IMG/VR virus record: IMGVR_UViG_3300045988_064538
DNA from: a virus
Reading direction: 5' to 3' (one strand)
Length of the DNA stretch: 37,402 nucleotides
Positions 3,101 to 37,402 of the stretch are shown here, piece after piece. The position numbers and the translations under genes are program-made. The stretch's first letter is position 1. Every line of letters begins with the position of its first letter. The notes beneath the pieces are model-generated. The model was given only the letters and a program-made list of their open reading frames with translations. It did no database searches and had not been told where the DNA came from.

Positions 3101-3701
3101 AAACAAACAACTATGGGCAATGGCAAAAGCCAATGAGATTATCAAAACAACGAATATCAAAGGAAGGGATTATGCCGAAGTCAACCAACGAATCAAAGCG
3201 TTTAGATTGGTACATCCAAGTGGATGTATTACAACAGAAATTGTCGAATTAAAAGATGGCATCGTAACAATGAAAGCAAGCGTATTTGATGAAGCAATGC
3301 GATTACTCGGAACAGGATACGCACAAGAAAAAGAGCAAAGCTCTTATATCAATAAAACAAACTATATCGAGAATTGTGAAACAAGTGCAATTGGTAGAGC
3401 TTTAGGAATGTGCGGATATGGCGTTGATGTTTCAGTTGCTAGTGCCGAAGAAGTTCAGAACGCAATCAATATTCAAGAACAAGAAGGAAAAAAATTAAAC
3501 GAATTGTCGATTAGCTACACTGAATTAAGGACAACTTTAAGCAATTTGGGTTGCGATTTTAGAAGCGATGAAACTAATAAATGGATTTGCGAAAAAGCAA
3601 AAATCAAAACACAGGAATTGCAAGTGCTAAATACTCAAGAATTAGAAAGACTATGCAAAGTTTACGAAGCTATGATTAACGCTAGAGTTAAGAAAGTTTA
3701 A
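3093..3701 (+). CDS. Putative single-strand annealing recombinase (Rad52/Sak-like)
   Basis: The pattern YAEVNQRIKAFR ... ENCETSAIGRALGMCGYG resembles the conserved core of Rad52-type phage annealing proteins. Sits beside Gp157-like and RusA genes. Recognised from memory only. Confidence 0.45.
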   Translation: MNKNKQLWAMAKANEIIKTTNIKGRDYAEVNQRIKAFRLVHPSGCITTEIVELKDGIVTMKASVFDEAMRLLGTGYAQEKEQSSYINKTNYIENCETSAIGRALGMCGYGVDVSVASAEEVQNAINIQEQEGKKLNELSISYTELRTTLSNLGCDFRSDETNKWICEKAKIKTQELQVLNTQELERLCKVYEAMINARVKKV

Positions 3702-3734
3702 TTGTATATAAAAAATAGAAAGAAGGATAACATA

Positions 3735-4229
3735 ATGAATTTATTTGAAATTAGCAAAGCGTATGAAGAAGTAATTGAAAATGGGTTTCACGAAGATTCA
3801 GAAACGGGAGAAATTTTATTTGATGAAGAAAGCCTAGATGAATTGATTGGTGATTTTAATAGCAAGGTAGATAACATCGTTTGCTATATTAAAAATCTTG
3901 AAACATTAAATACAGGAATCAAGAAAGAAATTGATAGCATGAGTGCTAGAAAAAAAGTAAATGAAAAGAAAATCGAAAACTTAAAATCTTACATTGTATC
4001 AGTGTTAAAAAGTAGAGATTTAAAGAAATATCAAACAGAGAAAAACGCAATCAGTATTAGAAAATCGGCATTAATTAAAGTAATCGATTTCGACTCTTTA
4101 GACGACAAATACAAAACCGCAAAAACGACATACACACCAAATAAAGCGGATATCAAAATTGCTATATTAAGTGGAAAAACAGTTGATGGAGCAAAAATTG
4201 AAGAGAAAGAGAATTTGCAAATTAAGTAA
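3735..4229 (+). CDS. Siphovirus Gp157-like protein
   Basis: N-terminus MNLFEISKAYEEVIE ... VDNIVCYIKNLE and a coiled-coil C-terminus match my memory of the Gp157 family. ATG at 3735 follows RBS agaagga. Confidence 0.5.
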   Translation: MNLFEISKAYEEVIENGFHEDSETGEILFDEESLDELIGDFNSKVDNIVCYIKNLETLNTGIKKEIDSMSARKKVNEKKIENLKSYIVSVLKSRDLKKYQTEKNAISIRKSALIKVIDFDSLDDKYKTAKTTYTPNKADIKIAILSGKTVDGAKIEEKENLQIK

Positions 4230-4939
4230 TGCCAAAGCTAAGAAAATCGAATGGTTTATACATTGTTGATAAACCACCTATTAACGCAACAGATGATTTA
4301 TTACTTGAATGCGGTAATGAATTAGAAGTCAATATGCAGAAAGTTGATAATCGTTATATTACCGACCAACAAAGAAGATTCATCTTTGCATTGTGTAAAG
4401 ATTTTAGTGATTACACAGGATATGACAAAGAAGAAGCTAGAGATATGTTGCAAACCGCAAATGCTCAAGCTAAAGGAATCGATGTTAAATCATTAAGTAA
4501 TTGTGACATGACGTATGCGAATGGATTGATAGATTACATCATCACGTATTTTATATCAAATGATATTCCGTTCAACGCTAACACAATTAGAGAGAATCAA
4601 TATACATTCGATGAAAAACAGACCTACATCATGGCACTAAAAAGAGTATGTGTTGTGTGCGGACAAATTCATGCAGATATACATCATGTTGACCACATCG
4701 GAAATGGATTTAATCGAGATAAAATATCGCACATAGGAAAAAGAGCGTTACCACTTTGCAGAGTGCATCACACAGAGGTTCATTCCATTGGTGAACAAAA
4801 GTTTTTGCAAAAATATCATTTATCACCATTCGTGATAAACAAGAATATGGAGTATTTCATAAAAAAAGGAAAAATTAAAGTATTTGAAGAGGATTTAGAA
4901 AATGCCAAGGAAAACAACAACGAAGAAAATACAGGCTAA
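4229..4939 (+). CDS. HNH-like (DUF968-type) phage protein
   Basis: C-terminal Cys/His cluster CVVCGQIHADIHHVDHIGNGFNRDK ... LCRVHHTEVH. Confidence 0.5.
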   Translation: MPKLRKSNGLYIVDKPPINATDDLLLECGNELEVNMQKVDNRYITDQQRRFIFALCKDFSDYTGYDKEEARDMLQTANAQAKGIDVKSLSNCDMTYANGLIDYIITYFISNDIPFNANTIRENQYTFDEKQTYIMALKRVCVVCGQIHADIHHVDHIGNGFNRDKISHIGKRALPLCRVHHTEVHSIGEQKFLQKYHLSPFVINKNMEYFIKKGKIKVFEEDLENAKENNNEENTG

Positions 4940-8033: not shown

Positions 8034-8364
8034 AAATATCCGTGAACAAGTATATCGAAAATGCAATGGTCATTGTGCATATTGTGGGTGTGAATTAGAT
8101 TACAAAGATATGCAAGTAGACCATGTTAAATCAGTGTTTTATTACAACGGAACAAACGATATAGATAATCTTCTTCCAAGTTGTAGGATGTGTAATTTCT
8201 ACAAAAGCACATTTACATTAGATGAGTTCAGAAAAAACCTAGAATCATTACACGAGAGATTGCGAAAGCCGTTTATTTATCGTTTGGCACTGAAATATGG
8301 ATTAATAACTGAGCGAAAAAAAGATGTTGTGTTTTATTTTGAAAAGGAGAAAGAAAATGACTGA
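8011..8364 (+). CDS. HNH endonuclease
   Basis: CAYCGCELDYKDMQVDHVKS ... NLLPSCRMCNFYK is a canonical HNH/zinc-finger layout. Confidence 0.8.
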   Translation: MARKPIPKNIREQVYRKCNGHCAYCGCELDYKDMQVDHVKSVFYYNGTNDIDNLLPSCRMCNFYKSTFTLDEFRKNLESLHERLRKPFIYRLALKYGLITERKKDVVFYFEKEKEND

Positions 8365-8740
8365 TTATGTATTTGAAGTGATGAAGCAATTTCCACAATC
8401 ATTTATCAATTATAACAATGAACTTATTTTAATCCCAAAAACAAATTTGTACGTTTGCCTACACGATGTAAATACGCCCACAGATTTAAAGTTTAAATTG
8501 TTGGAATATTGTAGTAGAGAATGTACATTCGTAGAGAGATATAGCCAAGAGTGGAGAAATAGAAGGTATCAAGATGATATTTTGTTAAGAATCAACAAAT
8601 GTCTAGGAACAAATTTCACACGAGAAGAAATGGAATTAGTTTATGACGTATTAGGCAATGGATGTAATCATAAATTAGCAAAAAGGTTCGTTTCAAGTGG
8701 TTACGATATGAAGTTGTTGGAGAGAAAAGAAAATGAATAA
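8357..8740 (+). CDS. Hypothetical protein
   Basis: ATG at 8357 after aaaaggagaaag. No motif. Confidence 0.45.
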   Translation: MTDYVFEVMKQFPQSFINYNNELILIPKTNLYVCLHDVNTPTDLKFKLLEYCSRECTFVERYSQEWRNRRYQDDILLRINKCLGTNFTREEMELVYDVLGNGCNHKLAKRFVSSGYDMKLLERKENE

Positions 8741-13521: not shown

Positions 13522-14556
13522 ATGCAGATTGTAGAAATGAATTTATCGGATTTAAAGCCGTATGAAAATAACCCTAGAAACAATCAAGAAGCGATTGATT
13601 ATGTCGCAAGTAGCATTCATGAGTTTGGCTTTAAAGTTCCGATTGTAATTGATAAAGATAATGTAATTGTGTGCGGTCATACAAGATATTTAGCTAGTAA
13701 ACAATTAAATATGAAGAAAGTGCCGTGTATTAAGGCAGATGATTTAACAGATGAACAAATCAAAGCGTTTAGATTAGCGGATAACAAGGTATCAGAAAAA
13801 GCAGAATGGGACTATGACAAATTAAACGAAGAATTAAATGATATTTACGATATAGATATGGAAAGTTTTGGATTCGATATCGATTTTGCCGATGAAGAAT
13901 ATGAGCATATTGTGAATCAACAGGAAACACAAAGAAGAGTTGAAAATATTGTAAATTTGCAATATGGGCAATTTGAAGGTGAAGGTAAATATGATATCCC
14001 AAAATTAAAAGCGGTAACAGATTTACCGCCAATTAAGGAATGGATTGGATTTAATTACGTATTGTCAGATAACGACCCTAGCGGAAAAGCGGTACATTTC
14101 TTCATTGACGATTATCAATTCGAAAGAATTTGGAACAATCCACAACAATATGTTGATAAATTGAAGCAATATGTATGCGTAACGACACCCGACTTTTCAC
14201 CGTATGGCGATATGCCGTTAGCTACACAGATATTCAACATATATCGAAAAGCATGGGTTGGTGCATTCTTACAGGAGCAAGGAGTTACGGTAATTCCAAC
14301 AGTAAGAGCAAGTACAGACCCAAGAAGCTTGGAATTCTATTTAGACGGAATCCCAAAAGATGGAATCGTGATTATTAGCAATATGTGGACAAATGACAAG
14401 GAATCAAGAAAGTATTTCTTAGATAACGAATATAAAACAATGATGGAAACGCTACATCCTAGAAAAGTATTCATTTACGGTCGTGAATTCGAAGAAATTA
14501 CAGATGATAACGTGGAATATATAGAAACGTTTACGAAAGGAAGATGGAGTAAGTAG
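13522..14556 (+). CDS. ParB-like nuclease domain / DUF4417-like fusion protein
   Basis: N-terminus LSDLKPYENNPRNN...VCGHTRYLA is ParB/Srx-like. C-terminus HFFIDDYQFERIWNNP...TPDFSPYGDMP...NIYRKAWVGAFLQ matches my memory of DUF4417. Strong RBS gaaaggag upstream. Confidence 0.65.
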   Translation: MQIVEMNLSDLKPYENNPRNNQEAIDYVASSIHEFGFKVPIVIDKDNVIVCGHTRYLASKQLNMKKVPCIKADDLTDEQIKAFRLADNKVSEKAEWDYDKLNEELNDIYDIDMESFGFDIDFADEEYEHIVNQQETQRRVENIVNLQYGQFEGEGKYDIPKLKAVTDLPPIKEWIGFNYVLSDNDPSGKAVHFFIDDYQFERIWNNPQQYVDKLKQYVCVTTPDFSPYGDMPLATQIFNIYRKAWVGAFLQEQGVTVIPTVRASTDPRSLEFYLDGIPKDGIVIISNMWTNDKESRKYFLDNEYKTMMETLHPRKVFIYGREFEEITDDNVEYIETFTKGRWSK

Positions 14557-15201
14557 ATGGCTAAAGGTGGCAGAGGTGGAAAAAGAAGAAGGGGAAATCC
14601 TAGCACAAACGATAAATTTAGTCCGAATGGTGTTGGAGATTCAGTACCAAGTTCATTAAGTGAAGCACTAGGGGCAAAAGGAAAGCCCATGAGCGAAGCT
14701 AATGCATGGTTTGATGCAAACCCTTATTATAGTGACAAATACGCAGAATTTAGTTCAAATTGTCAAAGATGTGTATTCGCATACGAAATGCGACGAAGAG
14801 GATACGATGTTATTGCACAACCAACATACAAAGGCGATGAGATGCCGAGAAAATGGACAGGTGCAATGAAAGGGATGTCGCGCGTTATGGTTGGAAGAAC
14901 AACGGAAAAAGCGACTATCAGAAATATAAAAAATCAAATGTCGAATTGGGGAGAAGGAGCACGTGGTATTATATACATAAAATGGGCAGGAAAAAAGAAT
15001 GTTGGTCACGTAATAAATTGTGAACAAAAGAATGGTAAGTTACACATTTACGATGTACAATCTAATAAGAGAGTAACAGGTGTGAAATACCTAGAAAAAT
15101 ACTTGCCACACGCAACATTAAGTCACACGCAGTTATTCAGAACAGATAACGCTACACCAACGGACGACATGCGATTCATGGTAAGAACATCGAAGAAATA
15201 A
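14557..15201 (+). CDS. Papain-fold toxin-like (glutamine-deamidase-type) domain protein with a basic Gly-rich N-terminus
   Basis: Candidate catalytic Cys in SSNCQRCVFAYEMRRRGYDV and His/Asp in GHVINCEQKNGKLHIYDVQS, resembling the papain-fold toxin domains of polymorphic toxins. N-terminus is MAKGGRGGKRRRGN. Confidence 0.4.
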   Translation: MAKGGRGGKRRRGNPSTNDKFSPNGVGDSVPSSLSEALGAKGKPMSEANAWFDANPYYSDKYAEFSSNCQRCVFAYEMRRRGYDVIAQPTYKGDEMPRKWTGAMKGMSRVMVGRTTEKATIRNIKNQMSNWGEGARGIIYIKWAGKKNVGHVINCEQKNGKLHIYDVQSNKRVTGVKYLEKYLPHATLSHTQLFRTDNATPTDDMRFMVRTSKK

Positions 15202-15678: not shown

Positions 15679-16044
15679 ATGGCAAAAGGAGCAAGAGGTG
15701 GACAAAGCAAGAAAGCAAGAGGGGTTCAAACTGTTATGATTACATCATCGGATGGACAAACAAAAATCAGATTATCACAAGCGAGTGATGGAACAGTATA
15801 CCAACATTCAGACCCTCAAGGCGGACGATATGACAAACTAACACCAATCCAAGGCATGAGCATGAAAACATTGTTAAACAACGCTAAAAAGAATGGTGGA
15901 AGCATTACAAAAGTAACAAAAGCTATGTTGAATCAAGAAAAGAAGAGAAACAAAGCGGATTCATTAGCACAAGATAAAGCGTTAGGCTCAAGAGCATCTA
16001 AAAAAGGTGTGAATAGACATAGCGCATATTGGAGCAACATGTAA
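15679..16044 (+). CDS. Hypothetical basic protein sharing the MAKG-RGG N-terminus
   Basis: RBS gaggtggtg upstream. N-terminus MAKGARGGQSKKARG parallels that of ORF 14557. Confidence 0.5.
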   Translation: MAKGARGGQSKKARGVQTVMITSSDGQTKIRLSQASDGTVYQHSDPQGGRYDKLTPIQGMSMKTLLNNAKKNGGSITKVTKAMLNQEKKRNKADSLAQDKALGSRASKKGVNRHSAYWSNM

Positions 16045-16057
16045 AGGTGGTGATTAG

Positions 16058-16453
16058 ATGGATAAAGAAAGTAATTTGAAGCCTTTTACTAGTAATCAAG
16101 ACCGTGAACAAGCCAAGATAAATGGTAGAAAAGGTGGCAAAGCACGTCAAGCTCAAGTTAGGCGCAGAAAAGCACTAAAAGAGCAAATGGAATTGTTATT
16201 AACATTACCTTTAACAGATGAAAGAGCAAAGAAACAATTTGAATCTATGGGTATTGATGTGGATAACATGGATAATCAAATGGCGATGGTAGTTAAAACG
16301 TATGCACAGGCATTAAAAGGAAATATTAATGCAGTGAATGTGATTCGTGAGATTATCGGAGAGCGTGTTGTTGAAGTCAATGTTAACAATAATATCGATG
16401 ATAAAGTTAAAGAGCTAGACAGACTACTCGACAGTGTAGCAAAAGATGGATAA
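16058..16453 (+). CDS. terS: Terminase small subunit
   Basis: 131 aa directly upstream of and overlapping terL. The N-terminal LKPFTSNQDREQAKINGRKGGKARQ pattern is common in small terminases of Firmicutes phages. Confidence 0.6.
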   Translation: MDKESNLKPFTSNQDREQAKINGRKGGKARQAQVRRRKALKEQMELLLTLPLTDERAKKQFESMGIDVDNMDNQMAMVVKTYAQALKGNINAVNVIREIIGERVVEVNVNNNIDDKVKELDRLLDSVAKDG

Positions 16454-27869: not shown

Positions 27870-28562
27870 ATGTTTGGTGTAAAATTCGGAAATAAGCACT
27901 CATATGATGATTTCAACATGTATTTAAAAGAAAAAGATATAGGCTTTCCCGATGTTAAGCGTGAAACGGTAGAAATAGAAGGTCGTGACGGAAGTATCGA
28001 CCTTTCTACAGTTTTAACGAACGATGTTAAATACAAGAATAGAAAGCTATCGTTCACATTTCAAGCTATCGGAAGTAAATTTGATTTTCCTAATATCATT
28101 TCTAAAATTTCTAATTATTTACACGGTAGAAATTATCACGTTGTTTTAGATGAGGATAAAACATTTTATTATGAAGGTAATGTAACGATTAATAAATTCA
28201 AAACTAGCAAAGCGCTTGGAGAAATTACGATAGATGTGGATGCACAACCGTATAAAATGGAAGTTGTCGCAACAGGTGAACCGTGGATATGGGATACATT
28301 CTCATTTGTTGATGGAATCATCCATGCATCAGAATTAACAGTAAATGGAACGGCAACAATAAACCTTATAAACAGGCGAAAGGTTGTATCACCAACAATT
28401 ACGTGTTCGGATGCTATGAGCGCTACACTAAATGGAGTTACAGTCCAATTAAAAAAAGGAGAAAATAAAGTTTTCGACTTTAGATTAAAAGAAGGTGACA
28501 ATGTTGTTACTTTTAAAGGTAATGGCAAAGTCAATATTATGTATAGAGGGGGTTCATTATAA
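27870..28562 (+). CDS. Distal tail protein (Dit)
   Basis: 230 aa immediately after the tape measure. The N-terminal FGNKHSYDDF...VKRETVEIEGRDGSIDLS pattern is typical of siphovirus tail component proteins. Confidence 0.7.
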   Translation: MFGVKFGNKHSYDDFNMYLKEKDIGFPDVKRETVEIEGRDGSIDLSTVLTNDVKYKNRKLSFTFQAIGSKFDFPNIISKISNYLHGRNYHVVLDEDKTFYYEGNVTINKFKTSKALGEITIDVDAQPYKMEVVATGEPWIWDTFSFVDGIIHASELTVNGTATINLINRRKVVSPTITCSDAMSATLNGVTVQLKKGENKVFDFRLKEGDNVVTFKGNGKVNIMYRGGSL

Positions 28563-31075
28563 TGTACACAGTATATTGCGATGAAAAGCCTATTTATGAT
28601 TTACGAAACGAAGAACTTGTGTTAGGCTCACCAAAATTAACTTTGGAAGAATCAAATACAGGTTCTTTTCAATTTACTATATTGCCGACACATCCATATT
28701 ATGATGATGTTATTGATTTGGTTTCGAATATTGTTGTAAAGCAAGATGGTGAAGAAATATTCAGTGGTATTCCAACGGAACACACAGAGGATTTCTACAA
28801 AAGAAGAACATTTTATTGTACAGGCGAATTATCGTATTTGAAAAACACAACTCAACCAATGGCAGAATATCACGATGTTACGGTTCGTGGGTTTCTAGAA
28901 GCGTTATTGAATATTCATAACGCAAAGGTTGTCGAAAAAAACAAATTCTATGTTGGAGAGGTAACTGTAAAAGATAACAACGATTCACTTTACAGATACA
29001 CGAATTATGAAACTACACTAGAGTGCATCAATGAAAAGTTGATAAAAAAATTAGGTGGTCACATCAAAATCAGAAAAGAAAACGGAAAGCGATATATCGA
29101 CTATATAGAAGATTATGCAAAGGTTTCTAATCAGATTATACAGTTTGGCGAAAACCTCATGGATTTTACCAAGGATTACGATACATCGGATATATGTACG
29201 GTATTAATTCCTTTAGGAGCTAGGCAAGATGAATCGCCAATTAGTGCTTTAGATGCATATTTAGATATAACGAGCGTTAACGATGGAAAGAATTACATAG
29301 TCAATCAAGAAGCCGTCAACAAGTACGGATGGATTGAAAAAGTAGTTAAATGGGATGATGTAAATGTTCCAACAATTTTAAAGACAAAAGGCGAAAAGTA
29401 TTTAAAAGAAGTACAATACGAGCCACAGACTTTAGAAATTAAAGCTATTGATTTACATAATCTAAACATTAATACCGATGCAATTAGGGTTTTGGATTCG
29501 GTTAGAGTTGTATCTAAACCGCACAATCTAGATAAATTCTTTTTAGTTACAAAACGACAAATTCCTTTAAATAAGCCGAGTGATGAAGTGTTCACATTCG
29601 GTGCTAAAATAAGAGAATCATTGACGGATACAACACAAAAAGAAAATGCAGATGTAAAAAACAAATTAAATTCAATTCCTAATAAATCGGAGATTTTAGA
29701 TGAAGCACGTAAAAACGCTACACAGATTATTCATGATGCAACGCACGGTCATGTCGTAACAACGGCTAACGAGCAATTAATCATGGATACAGATGATGTA
29801 AAAACCGCAAAGAATTTATGGAGATGGAATTTAGGCGGTTTAGCACATTCTAGTAACGGTTATGATGGTGCATATGACACGACTATAACAATGGATGGTC
29901 AAATTGCTGGTGAGCGCATTATTGCCAATTCAATCGATGCATCTAAATTAAGTATCAATTACAAGCAAAGTGTTGAAAAGAAAATAACCGTATCACTTGA
30001 TGATTCGAAGAAATATGCAGATGAAAAAGCAACAGGCGCAAAAGAATACACAGATGGACAAGTTACGGAAGCTAAAGATTACGCTAATACTCAAGCTAGT
30101 AACGCAGAATCGAAAGCCAACGAAGCAACGGACAAAAAGTTACAAAGCTATTGGACGAGTGTGGAAACGCAAACGAAAATTGAAAACAGTGCAGAAAAAG
30201 TAATTATTAGTGCATCTGAGAAAGCAACACAAATAGCAAACGAAGCACTAACGAACGCAAAAAACTACACAGATAACAAATTAGTTGATTATGTTACGAG
30301 TGCAAAATTAGAGGTTGAAAAAAATCAAATTTCTTTGAACGCACAAGAATACGCTATGGCATGCGCCAACTCATCGCTATCAAGTGCTAACGGGTACACG
30401 AATAGCCAATTAAAAGAATACGTTACAAGTGCGGACTTAAAGGTAAAAACAGATGCAATCGAAGCATCCGTATCAAAAAAAGTAGGAAACGATGAGTGGT
30501 CAACTAAGCTAAAACAAAGTGCAACGGATATTCAATTTGCATGGAATTCATGCAGTGATTACATCAAGTTTATTGATGGAGAAATGAAAGTGTATGAATC
30601 ATCAACTAATACAGATGATACATTGTTAGCTAGCTTCTATAAAAGAGGAATAACTTTATACAAAGATGGTTCGCGTTTAGGTATGATTGGAACAAATAAC
30701 ATTATAGGAAACGAAAGTGTTAAAGGAATTGTTTTCGATTTAAATTATAGCGGTTCATACATGGCTTGGGCATCAAAAGATGTTAACGACGATGTAAATG
30801 AATATACCATAAAATTAGCGTATGTTGGAAAAGGGAGAGGTTTTGAAAACCATGAAGAAGATGCGCTATATAGCACAGTAACGCTAGATATGCGAAACCA
30901 TTACCTAAAAAATCCTATATTTAAAATCGGCGATGATATAGGCAAAAATTTGACATTCAATTTCTATCAATGCACGAGTGTAACAGACCACAAAGGTAAT
31001 TTTCCAACCACACCATGTTATCTTAGATTCAAACACGGGTTAATGGTTGATGCTAAAGTGTTTCAAATAACATAG
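28562..31075 (+). CDS. Tail-associated protein (Tal / prophage tail endopeptidase family) with coiled-coil C-terminal half
   Basis: 837 aa after Dit. The mid-region has repeated K.YTD.Q...AK.YA-type coiled-coil units. Confidence 0.7.
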   Translation: MYTVYCDEKPIYDLRNEELVLGSPKLTLEESNTGSFQFTILPTHPYYDDVIDLVSNIVVKQDGEEIFSGIPTEHTEDFYKRRTFYCTGELSYLKNTTQPMAEYHDVTVRGFLEALLNIHNAKVVEKNKFYVGEVTVKDNNDSLYRYTNYETTLECINEKLIKKLGGHIKIRKENGKRYIDYIEDYAKVSNQIIQFGENLMDFTKDYDTSDICTVLIPLGARQDESPISALDAYLDITSVNDGKNYIVNQEAVNKYGWIEKVVKWDDVNVPTILKTKGEKYLKEVQYEPQTLEIKAIDLHNLNINTDAIRVLDSVRVVSKPHNLDKFFLVTKRQIPLNKPSDEVFTFGAKIRESLTDTTQKENADVKNKLNSIPNKSEILDEARKNATQIIHDATHGHVVTTANEQLIMDTDDVKTAKNLWRWNLGGLAHSSNGYDGAYDTTITMDGQIAGERIIANSIDASKLSINYKQSVEKKITVSLDDSKKYADEKATGAKEYTDGQVTEAKDYANTQASNAESKANEATDKKLQSYWTSVETQTKIENSAEKVIISASEKATQIANEALTNAKNYTDNKLVDYVTSAKLEVEKNQISLNAQEYAMACANSSLSSANGYTNSQLKEYVTSADLKVKTDAIEASVSKKVGNDEWSTKLKQSATDIQFAWNSCSDYIKFIDGEMKVYESSTNTDDTLLASFYKRGITLYKDGSRLGMIGTNNIIGNESVKGIVFDLNYSGSYMAWASKDVNDDVNEYTIKLAYVGKGRGFENHEEDALYSTVTLDMRNHYLKNPIFKIGDDIGKNLTFNFYQCTSVTDHKGNFPTTPCYLRFKHGLMVDAKVFQIT

Positions 31076-31089
31076 TAAAGGAGAATTGT

Positions 31090-31206
31090 ATGGATGATGT
31101 TAAGTATGTAATGCCCGAAATGGCAGAAATAAACGAGGATGATATTACAATTAAACCTATTGTATACATAGAAGAAAATGAAAAGGAGAAAGTAAATGAA
31201 GGTTGA
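31090..31206 (+). CDS. Small acidic hypothetical protein (38 aa)
   Basis: Good RBS aaggag 6 nt upstream of the ATG at 31090. Overlaps the next start. Confidence 0.3.
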   Translation: MDDVKYVMPEMAEINEDDITIKPIVYIEENEKEKVNEG

Positions 31207-31459
31207 AATTAAAGAAGATAGACCACTACCAATAAGCTTAGAAATGTTTAATGCAAAACAAGCGATTCTAGAGAATGTGTTAACAGTTCAAAAAGAATGT
31301 GGATTACCATATTTTGTGTTAGAAGGAATTTTAGCAGATGTTCTAGTGCAAATTCAAAGTGGTGCAAACAATGAAAGAACAATTGACTTTAATAAATATA
31401 TGGAAGGAATTAAAGAAGATTACGAAAAAGAATTGCAATCATTAAAAGGCGGTGAATAG
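31196..31459 (+). CDS. Hypothetical tail-module protein
   Basis: RBS aaaaggag upstream. 87 aa, helical and acidic. Confidence 0.5.
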   Translation: MKVEIKEDRPLPISLEMFNAKQAILENVLTVQKECGLPYFVLEGILADVLVQIQSGANNERTIDFNKYMEGIKEDYEKELQSLKGGE

Positions 31460-31462
31460 TAA

Positions 31463-33307
31463 ATGCCAAATATTCAAAATGAGATAAACCAAATTAAAAA
31501 TGCGGTTTACGGAGAAGAAGTTCGTGAATCGATTATCGGAGCAATTAAAAAAGTAAATGACGATAACGAGTCTTACGAAACAATCAAAGCAGAATTAAAA
31601 GGAATAAAAACAGATTTAGATAATTCAAAAGCAACACTAGAGAGCATTAAAAGTGCAACTAATACGGCATCGACAACGAAAGCAAACCTTGACACATCCA
31701 CTTCTAAAGCTACACAAGCTAAAAAAGACTTGGACAGTTCAATAACAGATGCTACAAGTGCAAAAAAAGCTTTAGACACATCGGTATCAACTGCCAATAC
31801 ATCTAAATCTAATTTAGATAAATCGGTAACGAGCGGTAATAATTCTAAAACAGAATTGGATAAATCTATTGAATCGGCAAAAACAAATAAAACTAACTTA
31901 GATTCATCTAATACAACGGCTACAAATACATTGAATTCTCTTAAATCAGAGAATTCAAAAGCTCAAGGATATTTGAATCAAGTAACATCAGAAAAAGCCA
32001 ATCAAATTTTAAACGGAATTTCAGATGTTAAAGACTATCTAGGATTAGTCGATACACAAGTCGTTGGATTACAGGTCGATTATAAGAATCGTACATTTAA
32101 ACGATTATGCGGAGCGGTTGGACTAAACAAAGGCTCGGATTTCAATAAGTTTAAAATGTATGGTGGACGTAGACGTTGTAATGTGGCGGATGATGGAACA
32201 ATCAAAGCGTATTATGGCGATAGCGGATATAAAGAAGATGGTTCAAATGGGCAAGTAATGGTTTATCAACCTAAATTCTATTACAACGTCGTGCCCGTTG
32301 AAACGGAGCAAATTTCAACAACAAAAAAAGGCTACCATATGCGTAAAGCTAATTATTACGTATCGGATGTGCCAAAACCAAACTTTAAAGTGCATCCCGT
32401 GTTCTTTGACAAAAACGGAAAAGAAACGGATTATGTATTATTATCGGCTTTTGAAGGTTCGTTATACGATACATCGGCTAGTAAATATCTAGCAAACGAT
32501 GAACAAGTTGCGGATTTTAGCACAGATAAATTATGTTCAATTGCGAATGTCCGTCCAACATCGGGATTATCACAAGATTTGACTAGACCAAAAACGGAAC
32601 AATTAGCAAAAAATCGTGGTGACGGTTGGCATCAATTAAACATTAAGATGACATCAATGGAACAATTACTAATGATGATTGAATTAGGGACTATGGATGT
32701 ACAAAGTGCAATTGGACAAGGTGTCACAAGTATTCCCGATAATGGTTCAACATCATGTGCATCTTATACAGGTTCAACATCATCACTAGGTAATAACACA
32801 GGAATGGCGAATGCAACCAAAGACTACACAGGAACATCCCAAACCGCAAATGGTAAAGTCGCTATTTCATATCGTGGAGTTGAAAACTTCTATGGTTCTA
32901 TTTGGAAGTTTGCAAGTGGAATGAATATCTATGGAAACGGAAAAATGGACGGTGGAATGGCATATATTTGCGATGATTTTACATATGCCGAAGGAAAGAA
33001 CACAGACAATTATAAACCGTGCGGATTTACATTAACGCCTAAAAGTGGATTTATTTCCGCGATGGGATATAGTGAAGAATACGATTGGTTGTTCCTAGCA
33101 TCTGAATGTAACGGCAATAGTGCTCTACCCGTTGGCGATTACACGTGGGTTACTGAAAACCTAAACGGTTATCGTATCGCCCTATTGGGTGGGCGTTGGA
33201 ATAATGGCGGTTATTCGGGGGCTTTCTGTTGGTATTTGGCTTACGGTGTCGGTAGTCGGAATCGTAATGTCGGTGGTCGCTTGTCGTATATCCCCACTAT
33301 GTCATAG
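31463..33307 (+). CDS. Tail fibre / receptor-binding protein, DGR target (C-terminal C-type-lectin-fold-like variable region)
   Basis: N-terminus NEINQIKNAVYGEEVRESIIGAI is typical of tail fibre anchors, followed by 14-residue repeats. The C-terminal GGRWNNGGYSGAFCWYLAYGVGSRNRNVGGRL is encoded by the VR. Confidence 0.85.
   Translation: MPNIQNEINQIKNAVYGEEVRESIIGAIKKVNDDNESYETIKAELKGIKTDLDNSKATLESIKSATNTASTTKANLDTSTSKATQAKKDLDSSITDATSAKKALDTSVSTANTSKSNLDKSVTSGNNSKTELDKSIESAKTNKTNLDSSNTTATNTLNSLKSENSKAQGYLNQVTSEKANQILNGISDVKDYLGLVDTQVVGLQVDYKNRTFKRLCGAVGLNKGSDFNKFKMYGGRRRCNVADDGTIKAYYGDSGYKEDGSNGQVMVYQPKFYYNVVPVETEQISTTKKGYHMRKANYYVSDVPKPNFKVHPVFFDKNGKETDYVLLSAFEGSLYDTSASKYLANDEQVADFSTDKLCSIANVRPTSGLSQDLTRPKTEQLAKNRGDGWHQLNIKMTSMEQLLMMIELGTMDVQSAIGQGVTSIPDNGSTSCASYTGSTSSLGNNTGMANATKDYTGTSQTANGKVAISYRGVENFYGSIWKFASGMNIYGNGKMDGGMAYICDDFTYAEGKNTDNYKPCGFTLTPKSGFISAMGYSEEYDWLFLASECNGNSALPVGDYTWVTENLNGYRIALLGGRWNNGGYSGAFCWYLAYGVGSRNRNVGGRLSYIPTMS
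33176..33284 (+). repeat. DGR variable repeat (VR)
   Basis: Aligns without gaps to 33381-33489 at offset 205. 19 mismatches, all where TR has A. The boundary is uncertain by a few nt (possibly to 33286). Confidence 0.9.
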
Positions 33308-33321
33308 ATTATTTAAGTATA

Positions 33322-33330
33322 TGTTATAAT
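33322..33330 (+). promoter_or_regulatory. Candidate extended -10 promoter (tgttataat) for the TR-spacer-RT transcript
   Basis: TGnTATAAT match 15 nt after the target gene stop and about 50 nt upstream of TR. No good -35. Confidence 0.35.
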
Positions 33331-33380
33331 ATACATAGGTTAATATCATCGTGATTTACTGATTTGCAAAAATTAAATCA

Positions 33381-33489
33381 ATCACCCAATTAGGTGGGAA
33401 TTGGAATAATGGCAGTAATTCGGGAGCTTTCTATTGGAATTTGAATAACAGTGTCAGTAATCGGAATCGTAATATCAGTGGTCACTTGT
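33381..33489 (+). repeat. DGR template repeat (TR)
   Basis: Noncoding copy of VR. Read in the VR frame it carries 10 AAY codons and several AGT codons. 33 adenines by hand count. Confidence 0.9.
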
Positions 33490-33689
33490 AATGTGCTTTA
33501 AGAATTAATTTTTGTTTAAAACCGAATCATCAAACGGTTCGGTTTTAATATAACTGAATGATATTGACCTTGGCACTTGCCAAAACATAAAAGACCGTAC
33601 TACACGGCAACAATTTAAAAGTGTATTAGTAGGCTATGTATTAGCTCGAAAGTTCGCAAAAATTGCATACGTTTTTAGAAGGATTTAGA
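33490..33689 (+). ncRNA. Spacer region of the putative DGR RNA (between TR and RT)
   Basis: About 200 nt with no ORF. Holds the hairpin aaaaccgaa(33518-33526)/ttcggtttt(33538-33546) and smaller stems ttggc-actt-gccaa and ccgt-actac-acgg. Confidence 0.45.
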
Positions 33690-34754
33690 ATGAAGAGAAT
33701 AGGAAATATTTATAGCAAAATTTATGATATGGAAAATTTAAGACTAGCTCACAAAAACGCTAGACGTGGAAAAGGATGGTATGAAGAAGTTAAACGTGTG
33801 GATGCAAATTTAGATTACTATTTGAACAAATTGCAAAAGCAGTTGATTAATCATACATATAAAACATCTAAATACACTACATTCATAAAACATGACAGTG
33901 GAAAAGATAGAGAAATTTACAGATTGCCATATTTCCCCGACAGAATTTGCCAATGGGCGATTTTACAAGTAATAAGTGATTACATATTAAAGAATCTAAC
34001 AAGCAATACTTATTCGGCTATTCCAAACAGAGGAATACATTACGGATATAAAAAAATGCAGAAAGATATACAAAACAACAAAGAAAAATGTAAATATTGC
34101 TTAAAAATCGATGCTAGAAAATATTATCCATCAATTAATCACGACATTCTTAAATCTAAATATAGAAGCATTTTCAAAGATAAAGAATTACTTTGGTTGC
34201 TAGATGAAATAATCGACTCAACCGAAGGAGATACAGGAATTCCAATCGGTAACTATTTGTCACAATTCAGTGGCAATTTTTATTTGTCGAGTTTTGACCA
34301 TTGGATTAAAGAAGAAAAACACGTCGATTCTTACCATAGATATATGGATGATATTGTAATTTTCGCAGAAACAAAAGAAGAATTATATCTTTTAAGAATT
34401 GAAATCGACAAATATTTTAGAGAAAAACTAAAACTAGAAATGAAAGGCAATTGGCAAATATTCCCCACATTTGTTAGAGGTGTTGACTTTCTAGGATATA
34501 GATTTTTTGGAGACTACACGCTATTAAGAAAATCAACTTTAAAAAGAATGAAAAGAGCACTGATACCAATTCACAAAAAAGTTAGCAAAGGAAATATGAT
34601 TAATTATCATGAGTGGTGTCAAATTAATTCGTATAAAGGTTGGTTGAAATGGTGTGATAGCTTTAATTTGTATCGAAAATATATCTTGCCTTTAGAAAAT
34701 GCTTGTGATTCGTATTACACGAATGTAATCAAAAGAAAGGTGTGCATAACATGA
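33690..34754 (+). CDS. DGR reverse transcriptase
   Basis: ATG at 33690 lies 6 nt after agaagga, whereas the track ORF starts at a TTG at 33663. Motifs: SGKDREI, ARKYYPSI, IGNYLSQ (the DGR-type [ILV]GxxxSQ) and RYMDDIVIF (YxDD). Confidence 0.9.
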   Translation: MKRIGNIYSKIYDMENLRLAHKNARRGKGWYEEVKRVDANLDYYLNKLQKQLINHTYKTSKYTTFIKHDSGKDREIYRLPYFPDRICQWAILQVISDYILKNLTSNTYSAIPNRGIHYGYKKMQKDIQNNKEKCKYCLKIDARKYYPSINHDILKSKYRSIFKDKELLWLLDEIIDSTEGDTGIPIGNYLSQFSGNFYLSSFDHWIKEEKHVDSYHRYMDDIVIFAETKEELYLLRIEIDKYFREKLKLEMKGNWQIFPTFVRGVDFLGYRFFGDYTLLRKSTLKRMKRALIPIHKKVSKGNMINYHEWCQINSYKGWLKWCDSFNLYRKYILPLENACDSYYTNVIKRKVCIT

Positions 34755-35011
34755 AAGATTACGGATTGCAGAAAAGTGCCGTAAAGCCGTCAGAGCGAGA
34801 GTTCACAGAAAGCAAAGTATTTGTATATACAGATATAAAAGAAGTTGTAGAAAGCTCGGAAAATGGTGATATTAACCTATTTGAATTTAATATGATTGAA
34901 TATGATAAAGATGAATTTATTGAATTATTGTCAGACAAAAATAAATCATTAGAATCAGAAATCACAGAAATTCAATTAGCATTGTGTGATGTATATGAAA
35001 GGCAAGGTTAA
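34751..35011 (+). CDS. Small acidic protein, ATGA-coupled to the RT (XkdW-like phage protein or DGR accessory candidate)
   Basis: The ATG at 34751 overlaps the RT stop at 34752-34754. 86 aa and acidic. C-terminus is SLESEITEIQLALCDVYE. Confidence 0.5.
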   Translation: MKDYGLQKSAVKPSEREFTESKVFVYTDIKEVVESSENGDINLFEFNMIEYDKDEFIELLSDKNKSLESEITEIQLALCDVYERQG

Positions 35012-35013
35012 TT

Positions 35014-35130
35014 ATGGCTAAAATTTACGCGAGTTTAATTAGAAAAGGTTTAAAGACTTTGGAGCAAGTTCCGAAGCAATTAAGAAAAGAAGTAGAAAAG
35101 CTATTAAGCGAAGGAGAACAAAATGATTAA
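35014..35130 (+). CDS. Small conserved phage protein (XkdX/CD1375-like, 38 aa)
   Basis: MAKIYASLIRKGLKTLEQVPKQLRKEVEKLL resembles the small proteins that precede holins in Firmicutes phages. Overlaps the holin start. Confidence 0.45.
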   Translation: MAKIYASLIRKGLKTLEQVPKQLRKEVEKLLSEGEQND

Positions 35131-35392
35131 TTTTACAGAGTTAACAAAATATTTCGTATTAGTTGTATTGATTGCGTGTTTAATTGTTGGATATATTTTA
35201 AAAACATCGTTTGAAAGTTTCCCAAACAAATACATTCCTACCGTATTAGCTTTTATCGGCATGGTATTAAACTTAGCCGTTAGCGGTTTGAGTGTTGAAA
35301 GCGCCGTTTATGGTGCTTTAATGGGATTAGCTAGTACAGGAATGCATCAAGCGTTTACGCGATTTGTGGAAGGCAAAACCGAAGAAAAATAA
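35123..35392 (+). CDS. Holin
   Basis: 89 aa with hydrophobic helices (FVLVVLIACLIVGYIL, IPTVLAFIGMVLNLAV, AVYGALMGLASTG) and a charged C-terminus. RBS gaaggag upstream. Confidence 0.7.
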   Translation: MINFTELTKYFVLVVLIACLIVGYILKTSFESFPNKYIPTVLAFIGMVLNLAVSGLSVESAVYGALMGLASTGMHQAFTRFVEGKTEEK

Positions 35393-35406
35393 AATAGGCA
35401 ACTTGT

Positions 35407-35814
35407 ATGGAATTTACAATTACAAGCCAACAGATACTTTGGATTTGTGGATTTATTGCATCGGTTTGGGGTGTTGTGAAAATTATTAAAGAAATTGTTA
35501 AAGAGTTTAAAAAGCCAAGTGACGATTTGAAAGAAACGGTGAATCGTCACGGTCAGTTATTAAACAACGATAACGAGAGATTGAAAGCAATTGAAGTTTT
35601 CGTTAAATTGCAAGGCGAAGTAAACAAGAAAATCGATGAGCATACTCAAACTTTAGCAGAACACAACGAAAAGCTAGAAGCAGACAAACAAAGAGGTAAT
35701 TTAATGCTTAAAGCAAATATCGCAATTCTTGACGGTTTACTTTCCGAAGGTGACAAAGAGAATTTAAAAGAAACACGTAAAGAAATCCAAGAATACTTGG
35801 TAGATAAAAATTAA
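35407..35814 (+). CDS. Membrane-anchored coiled-coil protein of the lysis cassette
   Basis: N-terminal TM helix ILWICGFIASVWGVVKII followed by a charged coiled coil. Function unknown. Confidence 0.5.
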   Translation: MEFTITSQQILWICGFIASVWGVVKIIKEIVKEFKKPSDDLKETVNRHGQLLNNDNERLKAIEVFVKLQGEVNKKIDEHTQTLAEHNEKLEADKQRGNLMLKANIAILDGLLSEGDKENLKETRKEIQEYLVDKN

Positions 35815-35837
35815 GGCACTACATAGTGCCTTTTTTA
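35813..35837 (+). terminator. Rho-independent terminator between the holin region and the endolysin
   Basis: Stem aaggcact / agtgcctt, loop acat, then tttttt. Confidence 0.7.
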
Positions 35838-35860
35838 TATAAAGAAAGGAGCTATTTAAT

Positions 35861-35962
35861 ATGGATGAATTAGCTTATGAACAATTGAATGAAGAAGCTC
35901 AAGAAGAATTGAGCAATGGATTAGAAAAGGGGGAAGATGAAGAATGTCATACTCAAGACTAA
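35861..35962 (+). CDS. Small acidic peptide (33 aa) overlapping the endolysin start
   Basis: Strong RBS aaagaaaggag upstream. Sequence MDELAYEQLNEEAQEELSNGLEKGEDEECHTQD. Confidence 0.3.
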   Translation: MDELAYEQLNEEAQEELSNGLEKGEDEECHTQD

Positions 35963-37008
35963 CTAATAAGTACATTGTCGCAAGTCCTAACAACTATATG
36001 CGTGGACGTGGTGGCTATAAAGTATGTAAAATTACACCTCACCACATGGCTTGTCAATGGAGTGCCGAAAGATGCGCTCAATCATTCCAAGTTGAAGGAC
36101 GAATGGCAAGCGCTAACTATTGTATTGGTTCAGACGGTACAATCGTATGTAACGTAGACGAAGAAAATAGAGCGTGGACATCAAGCAACTACTACAACGA
36201 TTGCCAATCTATCACAATTGAAGTTGCAAATGAAACATGTGCGCCTAATTGGACAATTTCAACTAAAGCATGGAATGCATTGGTAAATCTATGTGTTGAT
36301 ATTTGTAAGAGATATAACTTTAGATTAAATTACACAGGAAACGCAAACGGAAGTTTGACAGAACATAGAATGTTTGCAAGTACAAGTTGCCCAGGTCCTT
36401 TCCTACACGATAGAATGAATCAATTAGCTAAAGAAGTTAACGCTAGATTAGATGGTCAAACAGTAGTACCAACACAACCTAGCGCGCCAAGCGGTGAAAA
36501 ATATTCAGTAGGATTACCTATTTGCACAAATACATTAAGTACAAATTGTAATGGCACATCTAGAATTCTAAAAGGAGATTGGAGCGGAACAATCGGACGT
36601 GTAATCAAAGGTGCTAAATATCCGTATCGTGTCGATAGAAAAGGCGTAGCGATTGGATGGACAAATGACAGTGCGATTGATTCAGACCCTCACATTCCTA
36701 ACAGTGGAACTCAAACGCAAGCGGTTCAAACTGTTTTAAATTGTATTCCGTCAGATTTCCACAAAGAAAACGCTACATTCTATATGGATAGAACACTTAA
36801 AATTATGAAAGCGCCAAGTGATAAAGCGGTCGATACAGGTTTTGTATATGAACGTGGTATGTCAGTACATTACGACGGATATGTAAAACGTGAAGGGTTC
36901 GTATGGATTTCATGGCTTTCGGCATCATCGGGAGAACGCCGTTGGATGAAATGCGGAATGTTAAACAATAAAGGCATTAACGCTACACCATACGGAAGAT
37001 TTGCATAA
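35944..37008 (+). CDS. Endolysin: N-acetylmuramoyl-L-alanine amidase (Amidase_2/PGRP-type) with C-terminal SH3b-like binding domain
   Basis: N-terminus KITPHHMACQ...ANYCIGSDGTIV...AWTSSNYYNDCQSITIEVANE...EHRMFASTSCPG is amidase_2-like. C-terminus YDGYVKREGFVWISWLSASSGERRWM is SH3b-like. Confidence 0.8.
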   Translation: MSYSRLTNKYIVASPNNYMRGRGGYKVCKITPHHMACQWSAERCAQSFQVEGRMASANYCIGSDGTIVCNVDEENRAWTSSNYYNDCQSITIEVANETCAPNWTISTKAWNALVNLCVDICKRYNFRLNYTGNANGSLTEHRMFASTSCPGPFLHDRMNQLAKEVNARLDGQTVVPTQPSAPSGEKYSVGLPICTNTLSTNCNGTSRILKGDWSGTIGRVIKGAKYPYRVDRKGVAIGWTNDSAIDSDPHIPNSGTQTQAVQTVLNCIPSDFHKENATFYMDRTLKIMKAPSDKAVDTGFVYERGMSVHYDGYVKREGFVWISWLSASSGERRWMKCGMLNNKGINATPYGRFA

Positions 37009-37060
37009 AATACACACATAAAAATAAAAAAATGTACGAATAAAGGCACAATATGTTATA

Positions 37061-37095
37061 GAAAGCAACCTATGGTTAATTCCATAGGTTCTTTC
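37061..37095. repeat. 35-bp near-perfect inverted repeat (candidate attP core, or a hairpin)
   Basis: gaaag(c)aacctatgg ttaatt ccataggttctttc: 14-bp arms with one bulge and no flanking T-run. Lies between the lysin and the integrase on the circular map. Confidence 0.35.
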
Positions 37096-37152
37096 GTATG
37101 CTATAATGGAAAAGGTTTGAGGTTAATATACATTTTGATGTTAATCTATGGA

Positions 37153-37184
37153 AGCCCTGTTTATACAGGGCTCTTTTTTATTTT
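37153..37184 (+). terminator. Rho-independent terminator of the lysis operon
   Basis: Stem agccctgt / acagggct, loop ttat, then cttttttatttt. Confidence 0.7.
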
Positions 37185-37209
37185 CCTAAAAAAACTATTT
37201 ACAAGCGGT

Positions 37210-37365
37210 ATGTTGTACAAAGAATTAATCACATTACCAATTGGAACGTGGGCGAAAGACGGAGATATCACAAAGGATGAAAAAATGAAATTAATCGATT
37301 TAGTGCGTGAGTTAAGAGAAGATGTGCTAAAGGTTTATAATAATAGAAAAAAGGCTAATTGTTAG
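37210..37365 (+). CDS. Possible small ORF (51 aa) between the lysis terminator and the integrase
   Basis: This is the distal part of track ORF 37072-37365. The upstream part spans two hairpins and is unlikely to be coding. Weak RBS. The ORF ends inside the bidirectional terminator. Confidence 0.25.
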   Translation: MLYKELITLPIGTWAKDGDITKDEKMKLIDLVRELREDVLKVYNNRKKANC

Positions 37366-37402
37366 CCTTTTTAATTTGTGTATACATCCACGCTCTCATG
37401 AA
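37326..37402. repeat. Right copy of 77-nt terminal direct repeat (identical to 1-77)
   Basis: Same 77 nt as the window start. Either a circular-assembly overlap or a true direct terminal repeat. Confidence 0.95.

Follow-up and report, generated by a model that had tools for sequence, protein, structure and literature searches.

A diversity-generating retroelement without detectable Avd, and the acidic gene coupled to its reverse transcriptase, in a temperate siphophage of gut Clostridia

How a diversity-generating retroelement (DGR) might work without the accessory protein Avd is the question raised by the 3' end of IMG/VR virus record IMGVR_UViG_3300045988_064538 (37,402 nucleotides, nt; this whole stretch is termed the window). 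No gene of the Avd type is recognized beside its reverse transcriptase (RT), and the RT gene overlaps the start of a gene for a strongly acidic protein of 86 amino acids (aa), here o86. An earlier note, made from the sequence alone, had left three options: (a) the RT works without Avd, (b) an accessory factor replaces Avd, with o86 as the positional candidate, or (c) Avd is supplied from elsewhere. It had also argued that o86 and the following 38-aa gene (o38) resemble the XkdW/XkdX pair, in which case their coupling to the RT would be incidental. The reading favored here, at a probability of about 0.8, is that of an active, accessory-free DGR that functions without Avd, in which the template repeat (TR) and RT lie between the tail fiber gene and a pre-existing, fiber-linked o86/o38 pair. 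The Avd-less DGR layout as such is already described and is not new. The features of the cassette are as follows.

31463..33307, + strand: DGR target gene, a 614-aa tail fiber/receptor-binding protein with the variable repeat (VR) at its 3' end (phrog_5302 tail protein, E 5e-97)
33176..33284, + strand: VR, a 109-nt direct repeat of TR
33308..33380, + strand: 73-nt gap from fiber stop to TR, read from the sequence
33381..33489, + strand: TR, 109 nt, 83% identical to VR
33564..33676, + strand: conserved structured RNA of the TR-RT spacer, with hairpin P1 at 33571-33582 and a 3' stem-loop domain
33690..34754, + strand: DGR RT, 354 aa, isoelectric point (pI) 9.4 (Pfam RVT_1, E 1e-16; phrog_1423, E 7e-120)
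34751..35011, + strand: o86, acidic 86-aa protein (phrog_18126, E 1e-23; pI 4.29; 21 D+E, 10 K+R)
35014..35130, + strand: o38, 38-aa CD1375-family protein, the constant downstream partner of o86 (NCBIfam NF040910, E 1e-12; phrog_1382)

Cassette, activity and spacer RNA

The cassette has the defining traits of a DGR: an RT gene beside a TR (200 nt upstream), repeats that differ only at adenines, and a VR at the 3' end of the target gene. All 22 core mismatches between TR and VR fall on TR adenines (14 A>G, 4 A>T and 4 A>C), and VR ends 21 nt before the fiber stop codon (TAG, 33305-33307). When the window is aligned with seven IMG/VR phages (L001-L007; ~95% identical across the region; n=8), VR is variable at 28 of the 33 positions that are adenine in TR, compared to 1/34 for T, 0/27 for G and 0/15 for C. 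The TR is nearly invariant among the same eight phages. At the sole variable T site, the TRs of L003 and L007 carry a T>C change, which reappears in the VRs of both. Such a pattern marks ongoing transfer from TR to VR with adenine mutagenesis, as evidence from natural populations and not from experiment.

The RT open reading frame (ORF) opens at a TTG (33663), while the start common to its relatives is the ATG at 33690, which is preceded by a GAAGGA Shine-Dalgarno sequence. The enzyme has at least 7,952 homologs at E<1e-10 and is 37%, 34% and 54% identical to the annotated RTs of the cultured Lactobacillus phage LBR48, Butyrivibrio phage Arawn and Psychrobacillus phage Perkons, respectively. 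Fiber homologs (43-60% identity) precede RT or o86 in nearly all related loci.

The spacing of the cassette is as the earlier note described it, with 73 nt from the target stop to TR and 200 nt (33490-33689) between TR and RT. The latter interval has no + strand ORF of at least 20 aa, and its minus strand has only ORFs of 22-31 aa; it does, however, hold a structured RNA. RNAalifold on 16 aligned spacers predicts a hairpin with CG-to-GC swaps and a 3' stem-loop domain, with compensatory changes in 10 of 16 pairs. Rfam RT-17 (RF03020) matches 33593-33672 over its full length at 28.6 bits (E 8e-4), short of the 40.4-bit gathering score. The spacer of LBR48 exceeds the gathering score of RT-18, and spacers of Arawn, Perkons and the related locus L101 match RT-4, RT-18 or RT-17. 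RT-10 has been placed in the TR-RT spacer of Bordetella phage BPP-1, and other RT motifs have been proposed for other DGRs (Weinberg et al. 2017, PMC5737381). In BPP-1, the bRT-Avd complex and the spacer RNA are required for making complementary DNA (cDNA) and suffice for it, and pentameric Avd binds the spacer RNA (PMC6182149). By analogy, the spacer RNA of the window is likely the RT-binding and priming element of the DGR RNA. Any Avd-independent mechanism would also have to be encoded there. Some relatives (e.g., L058 and L061) carry a second spacer type of different appearance. A 9-bp hairpin (AAAACCGAA...TTCGGTTTT) followed by a T-rich run is located at 33519-33547, 30 nt 3' of TR and upstream of the conserved spacer RNA; this hairpin could be a terminator, an attenuator or part of the DGR RNA. 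A promoter and terminator scan of 33200-35500 gives nothing above shuffled expectation.

Based on analogy with BPP-1, a late transcript would carry TR and the RT-17-like spacer RNA, the basic RT would prime adenine-mutagenic cDNA from that RNA, and the cDNA would replace VR at the 3' end of the fiber gene. No Avd-type protein would be involved in these steps, and the task of BPP-1 Avd would presumably be met by the RT, by the spacer RNA or by some host factor.

The search for Avd

Avd proteins are small, basic (pI about 9.5) four-helix bundles of the PF05635/cd16375 family. The window is essentially the whole of a temperate siphophage of gut Clostridia, and near-identical IMG/VR contigs span 36-37 kb, as does the window; thus, whether the phage has an Avd at another place can be tested within it. 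Six frames were cut stop-to-stop, and the resulting 182 segments of 50-260 aa were searched with Pfam at E up to 0.05. Neither PF05635 (Avd/23S IVS) nor HRDC, the two profiles for which the earlier note had proposed this check, is found among the 182 segments, and a MutS-type domain likewise has no Pfam match in the window. The claim that VR, TR and RT have no basic helical ORF of the Avd type beside them holds, as no basic ORF of at least 100 aa is found near these elements and no basic all-helical one near the cassette. Small basic ORFs elsewhere in the phage encode a RusA-like resolvase, an HNH protein, a probable small terminase and some proteins of no assigned function, and PHROGs finds nothing Avd-like among the small basic ORFs of the window. 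In nine related contigs, precomputed Pfam calls include no PF05635 gene within ±10 kb.

Pfam can miss such proteins, as gp58 of the Faecalibacterium phage FP_Brigit (L190), annotated as 'Avd', has no match. The FP_Brigit family was therefore modeled and used as an extra profile. The family model is all-helical, and its best PDB folds are 2RLD, 2GSC and 4DWL (BPP-1 Avd), with probabilities of 0.97-1.0 and a target-normalized template modeling (TM) score of ~0.7. The 'Avd' label is thereby supported by fold only, with no support from the Pfam or PDB sequence search. The hidden Markov model (HMM) of this Avd-like family and an hhalign profile have no match in the window, in o86 or in the small basic ORFs. 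Within the reach of these tools, the absence of Avd appears to be real and to be a property of the whole clade. The FP_Brigit gp58 is annotated at 264 aa (3694-4488), compared to 195-202 aa in relatives, and its ORF reads into the TR (4362-4489); an annotation artefact probably accounts for the last ~60 residues. The VR of FP_Brigit is inside gp60 (DUF6273) and not at the 3' end of the gene.

Of 372 DGRs, 74% have an avd gene (Wu, Gingery, Zimmerly et al. 2018, NAR 46:11, PMC5758913). Architecture A, in which TR and RT have no accessory gene, accounts for 75 of the 372, and Lineage 3 is without avd; a remote avd was looked for in genomes with avd-less DGRs, none was found, and an Avd-independent mechanism was concluded (PMC5758913). 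Most DGRs of Zeta crAss-like phages also lack Avd (PMC12386605). The premise that phage DGRs need Avd is valid for the BPP-1 type only. By layout and gene content, the window DGR is of Architecture A1 (target-TR-RT) and accessory-free: it shares the gene order, the strand, the lack of avd, HRDC and MSL, the adenine-specific TR/VR differences and the tail-fiber target. Unlike the published A1 set, the window clade is a very large group of gut-Clostridia phages with evidence of activity in natural populations. The window is similar to BPP-1 (mtd-avd-TR-brt) in the C-terminal hypermutation of a receptor-binding tail protein and in the structured RNA between TR and RT; it differs in that Avd is required in BPP-1, while none is detectable in the window. 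Among cultured phages, Arawn and Perkons share the order of the window, with the RT preceded by a TR-sized gap and, before that, by a tail or target gene, and neither these two nor LBR48 have an Avd in the neighbors tested. Option (a), an RT that works without Avd, is supported by VR diversification in natural populations together with the lack of a detectable Avd.

The o86/o38 pair and its junction with the reverse transcriptase

The RT stop (TGA, 34752-34754) overlaps the o86 ATG (34751) as ATGA, and this overlap and the strong acidity of o86 are as the earlier note had read them. The final codons of the RT are variable (…KRKVCIT, …KKGLNAA, …KKGGKVA), yet the tail always includes AAGAAAGG-type codons (K-K/R-G) ~10 nt upstream of the o86 ATG (34728-34754; ~25 relatives). 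Thus, the C-terminus of the RT encodes the Shine-Dalgarno sequence, or ribosome-binding site, of o86, and this double use probably constrains the RT tail. Once formed, such an ATGA junction would be kept by selection on both genes, with no joint action of RT and o86 required. The overlap is taken to be an inherited junction and is not read as a sign of cooperation between the two proteins. Two loci were considered as exceptions and set aside. L114 appeared to have an RT without o86, but L114 and L007 are one and the same contig, which does have o86, and the miss is an ORF-caller artefact. In L045 (1323-2758), the surroundings of o86 seemed unrelated; here, an 83-aa C-terminal fragment of a truncated RT, immediately downstream of an NrdD-like gene fragment, is still ATGA-coupled to o86, and the arrangement is probably a rearrangement or assembly chimera.

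The o86 protein has no Pfam or NCBIfam match. In its AlphaFold2 (AF2) model (pLDDT 93), four beta strands lead into a single C-terminal helix of 33 residues, which bears the invariant motif TQLALCDVYE. Foldseek of o86 against the PDB returns nothing below E 0.3, with no Avd (4DWL, 2GSC or 2RLD) and no XkdW in the top 50; the same method does retrieve 4DWL, 2GSC and 2RLD with FP_Brigit gp58. Against BFVD, Foldseek finds uncharacterized phage proteins only, and a PDB profile search yields only noise. No nucleic-acid-binding signature is detected in o86. An acidic beta-plus-helix protein of this kind is ill suited to take the place of a basic helical bundle that binds nucleic acid. The o38 protein matches NF040910 over model positions 1-33 of 34 at 47.4 bits (cut-off 22.5). 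At E<=1, o86 and 20 homologs have no match to PF09636 (XkdW), and o38 has none to PF09693 (XkdX).

The linkage of o86 follows the fiber gene. In L008-L012, L029, L030 and L034, which have no RT or TR, the fiber gene runs straight into o86 and o38, and o86 is present without RT in ~10 IMG/VR contigs. In species-representative genomes of GTDB, RT is absent from 12 of the 52 loci with enough upstream DNA, and in most of these RT-less loci a fiber homolog ends about 20-25 nt upstream of o86. Eleven of the RT-less GTDB loci form one diversified clade (mean pairwise identity 61%). Of the 15 o86 residues with at least 90% conservation among RT-linked copies, this clade retains 13, the entire C-terminal motif (TDTQLALCDVYEM) among them. 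The ratio of nonsynonymous to synonymous substitution rates (dN/dS) of o86 within RT-less clades is ~0.25, a value based on 2-4 differences per pair, too few to carry meaning. In the decaying DGR of L056 (2700-3290), the RT is cut down to ~25 N-terminal and ~7 C-terminal codons joined in frame, while TR (78% identical to VR) and the spacer RNA persist intact and the o86 sequence matches that of a relative with an RT at 100% identity. The comparison with DGR-less relatives proposed in the earlier note places o86 at the same position without an RT, the outcome that the note had named as removing o86 as an accessory candidate but not the Avd-less observation. It also agrees with the view that the coupling of RT and o86 is incidental; where RT is missing, o86 directly follows the fiber gene.

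The o38 gene follows o86 in nearly all loci. A block consisting of the C-terminal ~330-430 residues of the fiber, TR, spacer, RT, o86 and o38 is found in siphophage and in PBSX-like myophage backgrounds, and relatives that have fiber, RT, o86 and o38 in common carry different holins and lysins. As the lysis genes change while the fiber C-terminus, o86 and o38 stay together, the pair tracks the fiber and not lysis. The constant neighbors of o86-like proteins are a receptor-binding gene upstream and a CD1375/XkdX-type mini-protein downstream, with the RT as an optional insert. From this gene order, it is tentatively proposed, at slightly below even odds, that o86 and o38 help to assemble the fiber's C-terminal domain or to attach it.

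More distant phages have similar arrangements. In the FP_Brigit group, whose RT is about 30-37% identical to that of the window, the o86-like protein is gp61 (motif TQMALCDVYEQL; 24.9 bits against the o86 HMM), which is encoded after the VR-bearing gp60, directly before two CD1375-like genes and 0.3-2 kb from the RT. The Clostridioides difficile phage phiCD211 (L188, 3297-3620) has, after a giant receptor-binding protein, a 107-aa protein in which the CD1375-like C-terminal half is clear and the N-terminal helix matches o86 weakly (3.9 bits). This protein may be a fusion of o86-like and CD1375-like parts and, if so, the two small proteins may act together. Brevibacillus phage Jimmer1 has fiber genes, a 115-aa acidic protein that ends in LQLAITDLYEQI and matches the o86 HMM weakly (7.8 bits), a CD1375-like gene and lysis genes. 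The CD1375-like protein is present in both phiCD211 and Jimmer1, and no RT is seen within the 7 kb examined in each. LBR48 and Arawn have an RT, a small protein, a CD1375-like or XkdX protein and lysis genes; in Arawn, the small protein is acidic (gp19, 71 aa) and is followed by a true Pfam XkdX (gp20, E 3e-17). Perkons has a 449-aa ORF after the RT and no o86. None of LBR48, Arawn and Perkons has a detectable o86 homolog, and LBR48 gp02 and Arawn gp19 resemble o86 by position only. The likeness of o86 to XkdW is also positional: XkdW/XkdX of PBSX and o86/o38 are both located between a fiber/receptor-binding protein gene and a holin, and both consist of a ~70-115 aa acidic protein followed by one of ~35-50 aa, but they differ by Pfam. 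Thus, the suggestion of an XkdW/XkdX-like pair stands for position, including the insertion of TR and RT between fiber and pair, and does not stand for the Pfam family labels of o86 and o38. A search of the literature on the function of diffocin ORF1374/1375 and of XkdW/XkdX found nothing useful.

Competing explanations, phage background and significance

Several observations weigh against an accessory-free DGR beside an unrelated fiber-linked pair, and most of them favor a role for o86 in the DGR. An o86 homolog is directly at the RT stop in 76 of 77 RT-selected IMG/VR loci (those with enough downstream DNA among the 80 best, with RTs 60-98% identical), the single miss being the L114 artefact. 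The ATGA overlap is retained, through ~25 different junction sequences, in 82 of the 86 RT-containing loci selected through o86. With this adjacency and conservation, RT and o86 would almost always be expressed together, and a secondary role in the DGR is possible. No small proteins other than o86 and o38 move along with the mobile module from siphophage to myophage backgrounds or back, and if the phage encodes any DGR helper, these two are the only candidates. RT absence was scored over ±4.5 to 7 kb, so the RT-less genomes may have a trans-acting DGR elsewhere. No known function or fold has been matched to o86, and the fiber-assembly role is drawn from gene order only. There is also precedent for an acidic accessory: CH1 (pI 4.7; 160-169 aa) is a candidate found only in avd-less DGRs of Lineage 3a in Bacteroides (PMC5758913). 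Compared by published description, o86 is like CH1 in its acidity (4.3 vs. 4.7) and lack of known motifs and unlike it in its length of 86 aa, its occurrence in Clostridia phages and its persistence without RT. The o86 fold faintly resembles the coronavirus Nsp9, which binds single-stranded RNA (TM ~0.4, E>0.5). On these grounds, o86, perhaps with o38, could be a lineage-specific accessory that replaces Avd, is made in step with the RT and binds the RT or the cDNA intermediate. This is very unlikely, as o86 and o38 directly follow the fiber gene without RT in the 12 species-level loci and ~10 viral contigs described above, an old and diversified RT-less clade retains 13 of the 15 conserved residues, and the protein is acidic, is not a helical bundle and has no nucleic-acid-binding signature. 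Furthermore, the o86-like protein of the FP_Brigit type is separated from the RT, is beside CD1375-like genes and coexists with an Avd-like protein, and Perkons, which has the nearest cultured-phage RT (54%), is without o86. Option (b), the replacement of Avd by o86, is not upheld. A variant with a slim chance of being correct is that o86, with o38, is of fiber-linked origin and was later recruited via the fixed ATGA junction for cDNA synthesis or for targeting of cDNA to the fiber gene. If true, the recruited o86 would be a non-homologous functional substitute for Avd, and the RT-less lineages would show its older function only.

The supply of Avd in trans, by a divergent unrecognized phage gene or by the host chromosome, is very unlikely. 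It gains some ground because Avd proteins are poorly conserved (PMC5758913) and because Pfam fails on the FP_Brigit Avd-like protein, such that a very divergent Avd in phage or host is possible and also counts against the favored reading. Three small basic ORFs of the window are without assigned function (8324-8740, 15679-16044 and 16058-16453), but none resembles the FP_Brigit Avd-like profile, all are 17-25 kb from the cassette, and the DGR module moves between unrelated phage backbones that are without them. The failure to find a remote avd in genomes with avd-less DGRs (PMC5758913) and the lack of PF05635 within ±10 kb in nine relatives argue in the same direction, and option (c) finds no evidence within the phage. 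It is extremely improbable that the cassette is a decaying relic in which Avd is absent through loss of function. Decay does occur in related loci, as in the internally deleted RT of L056 and the C-terminal RT fragment of L045; in the window, by contrast, the RT ORF is intact and 96-98% conserved, VR varies among eight phages at TR adenines and not at G or C, and a point change in TR is mirrored in VR. An active DGR without Avd, inserted as TR and RT between the fiber gene and an older o86/o38 pair, remains the best explanation of the locus.

The phage that carries this DGR is without a close cultured relative, as searches of GenBank phages (INPHARED) by megablast of 31000-37402 and by tblastn of o86 return no match. 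After the recombinase gene, the window encodes a replisome organizer, an SPP1-type portal, a Mu-F-like protein, a capsid and a tape measure; at its 3' end are the fiber gene, the DGR and a holin/endolysin cassette (35123..37008). The other features assigned by Pfam and PHROGs or by position are listed below.

99-1592, minus strand: large serine recombinase (Resolvase + Recombinase; Pfam/PHROGs)
28562-31075: Prophage_tail protein
35123-35392, + strand: Hol44-type holin (Pfam, PHROGs)
35407-35814, + strand: 135-aa protein of the lysis cassette
35944-37008, + strand: Amidase_2+SH3_5 endolysin (Pfam, PHROGs)

Two small ORFs in 31090-31459, directly 5' of the fiber gene, encode proteins of 38 aa and of 87 aa (pI 4.6; phrog_11105), with counterparts of 50-52 aa and 76-84 aa at the same position in L013, L018 and L102. 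Farther upstream, the ORFs at 14557-15201 and 15679-16044 have an N-terminus in common (MAKGGRGGKRRRG / MAKGARGGQSKKARG). The former carries a Gln_amidase (papain-fold toxin) domain, and both are just upstream of the terminase genes, beside a ParB_N+DUF4417 protein (13522-14556).

For annotation, the result means that the ATGA-coupled acidic ORF should not be labeled as a DGR accessory gene. About one quarter of DGRs are without Avd, and no experimental study of the mechanism by which these carry out processive, adenine-mutagenic reverse transcription was found in the literature. The clade of the window appears to offer a convenient natural model for this mechanism: it is abundant, with the RT homologs counted above, it is naturally active, and it is compact, consisting of the fiber, TR, ~110 nt of structured spacer and an RT of 354 aa. 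The clade also occurs in cultured strains, e.g., Bariatricus massiliensis AT12, Coprococcus comes MSK.16.63 and [Clostridium] asparagiforme DSM 15981.

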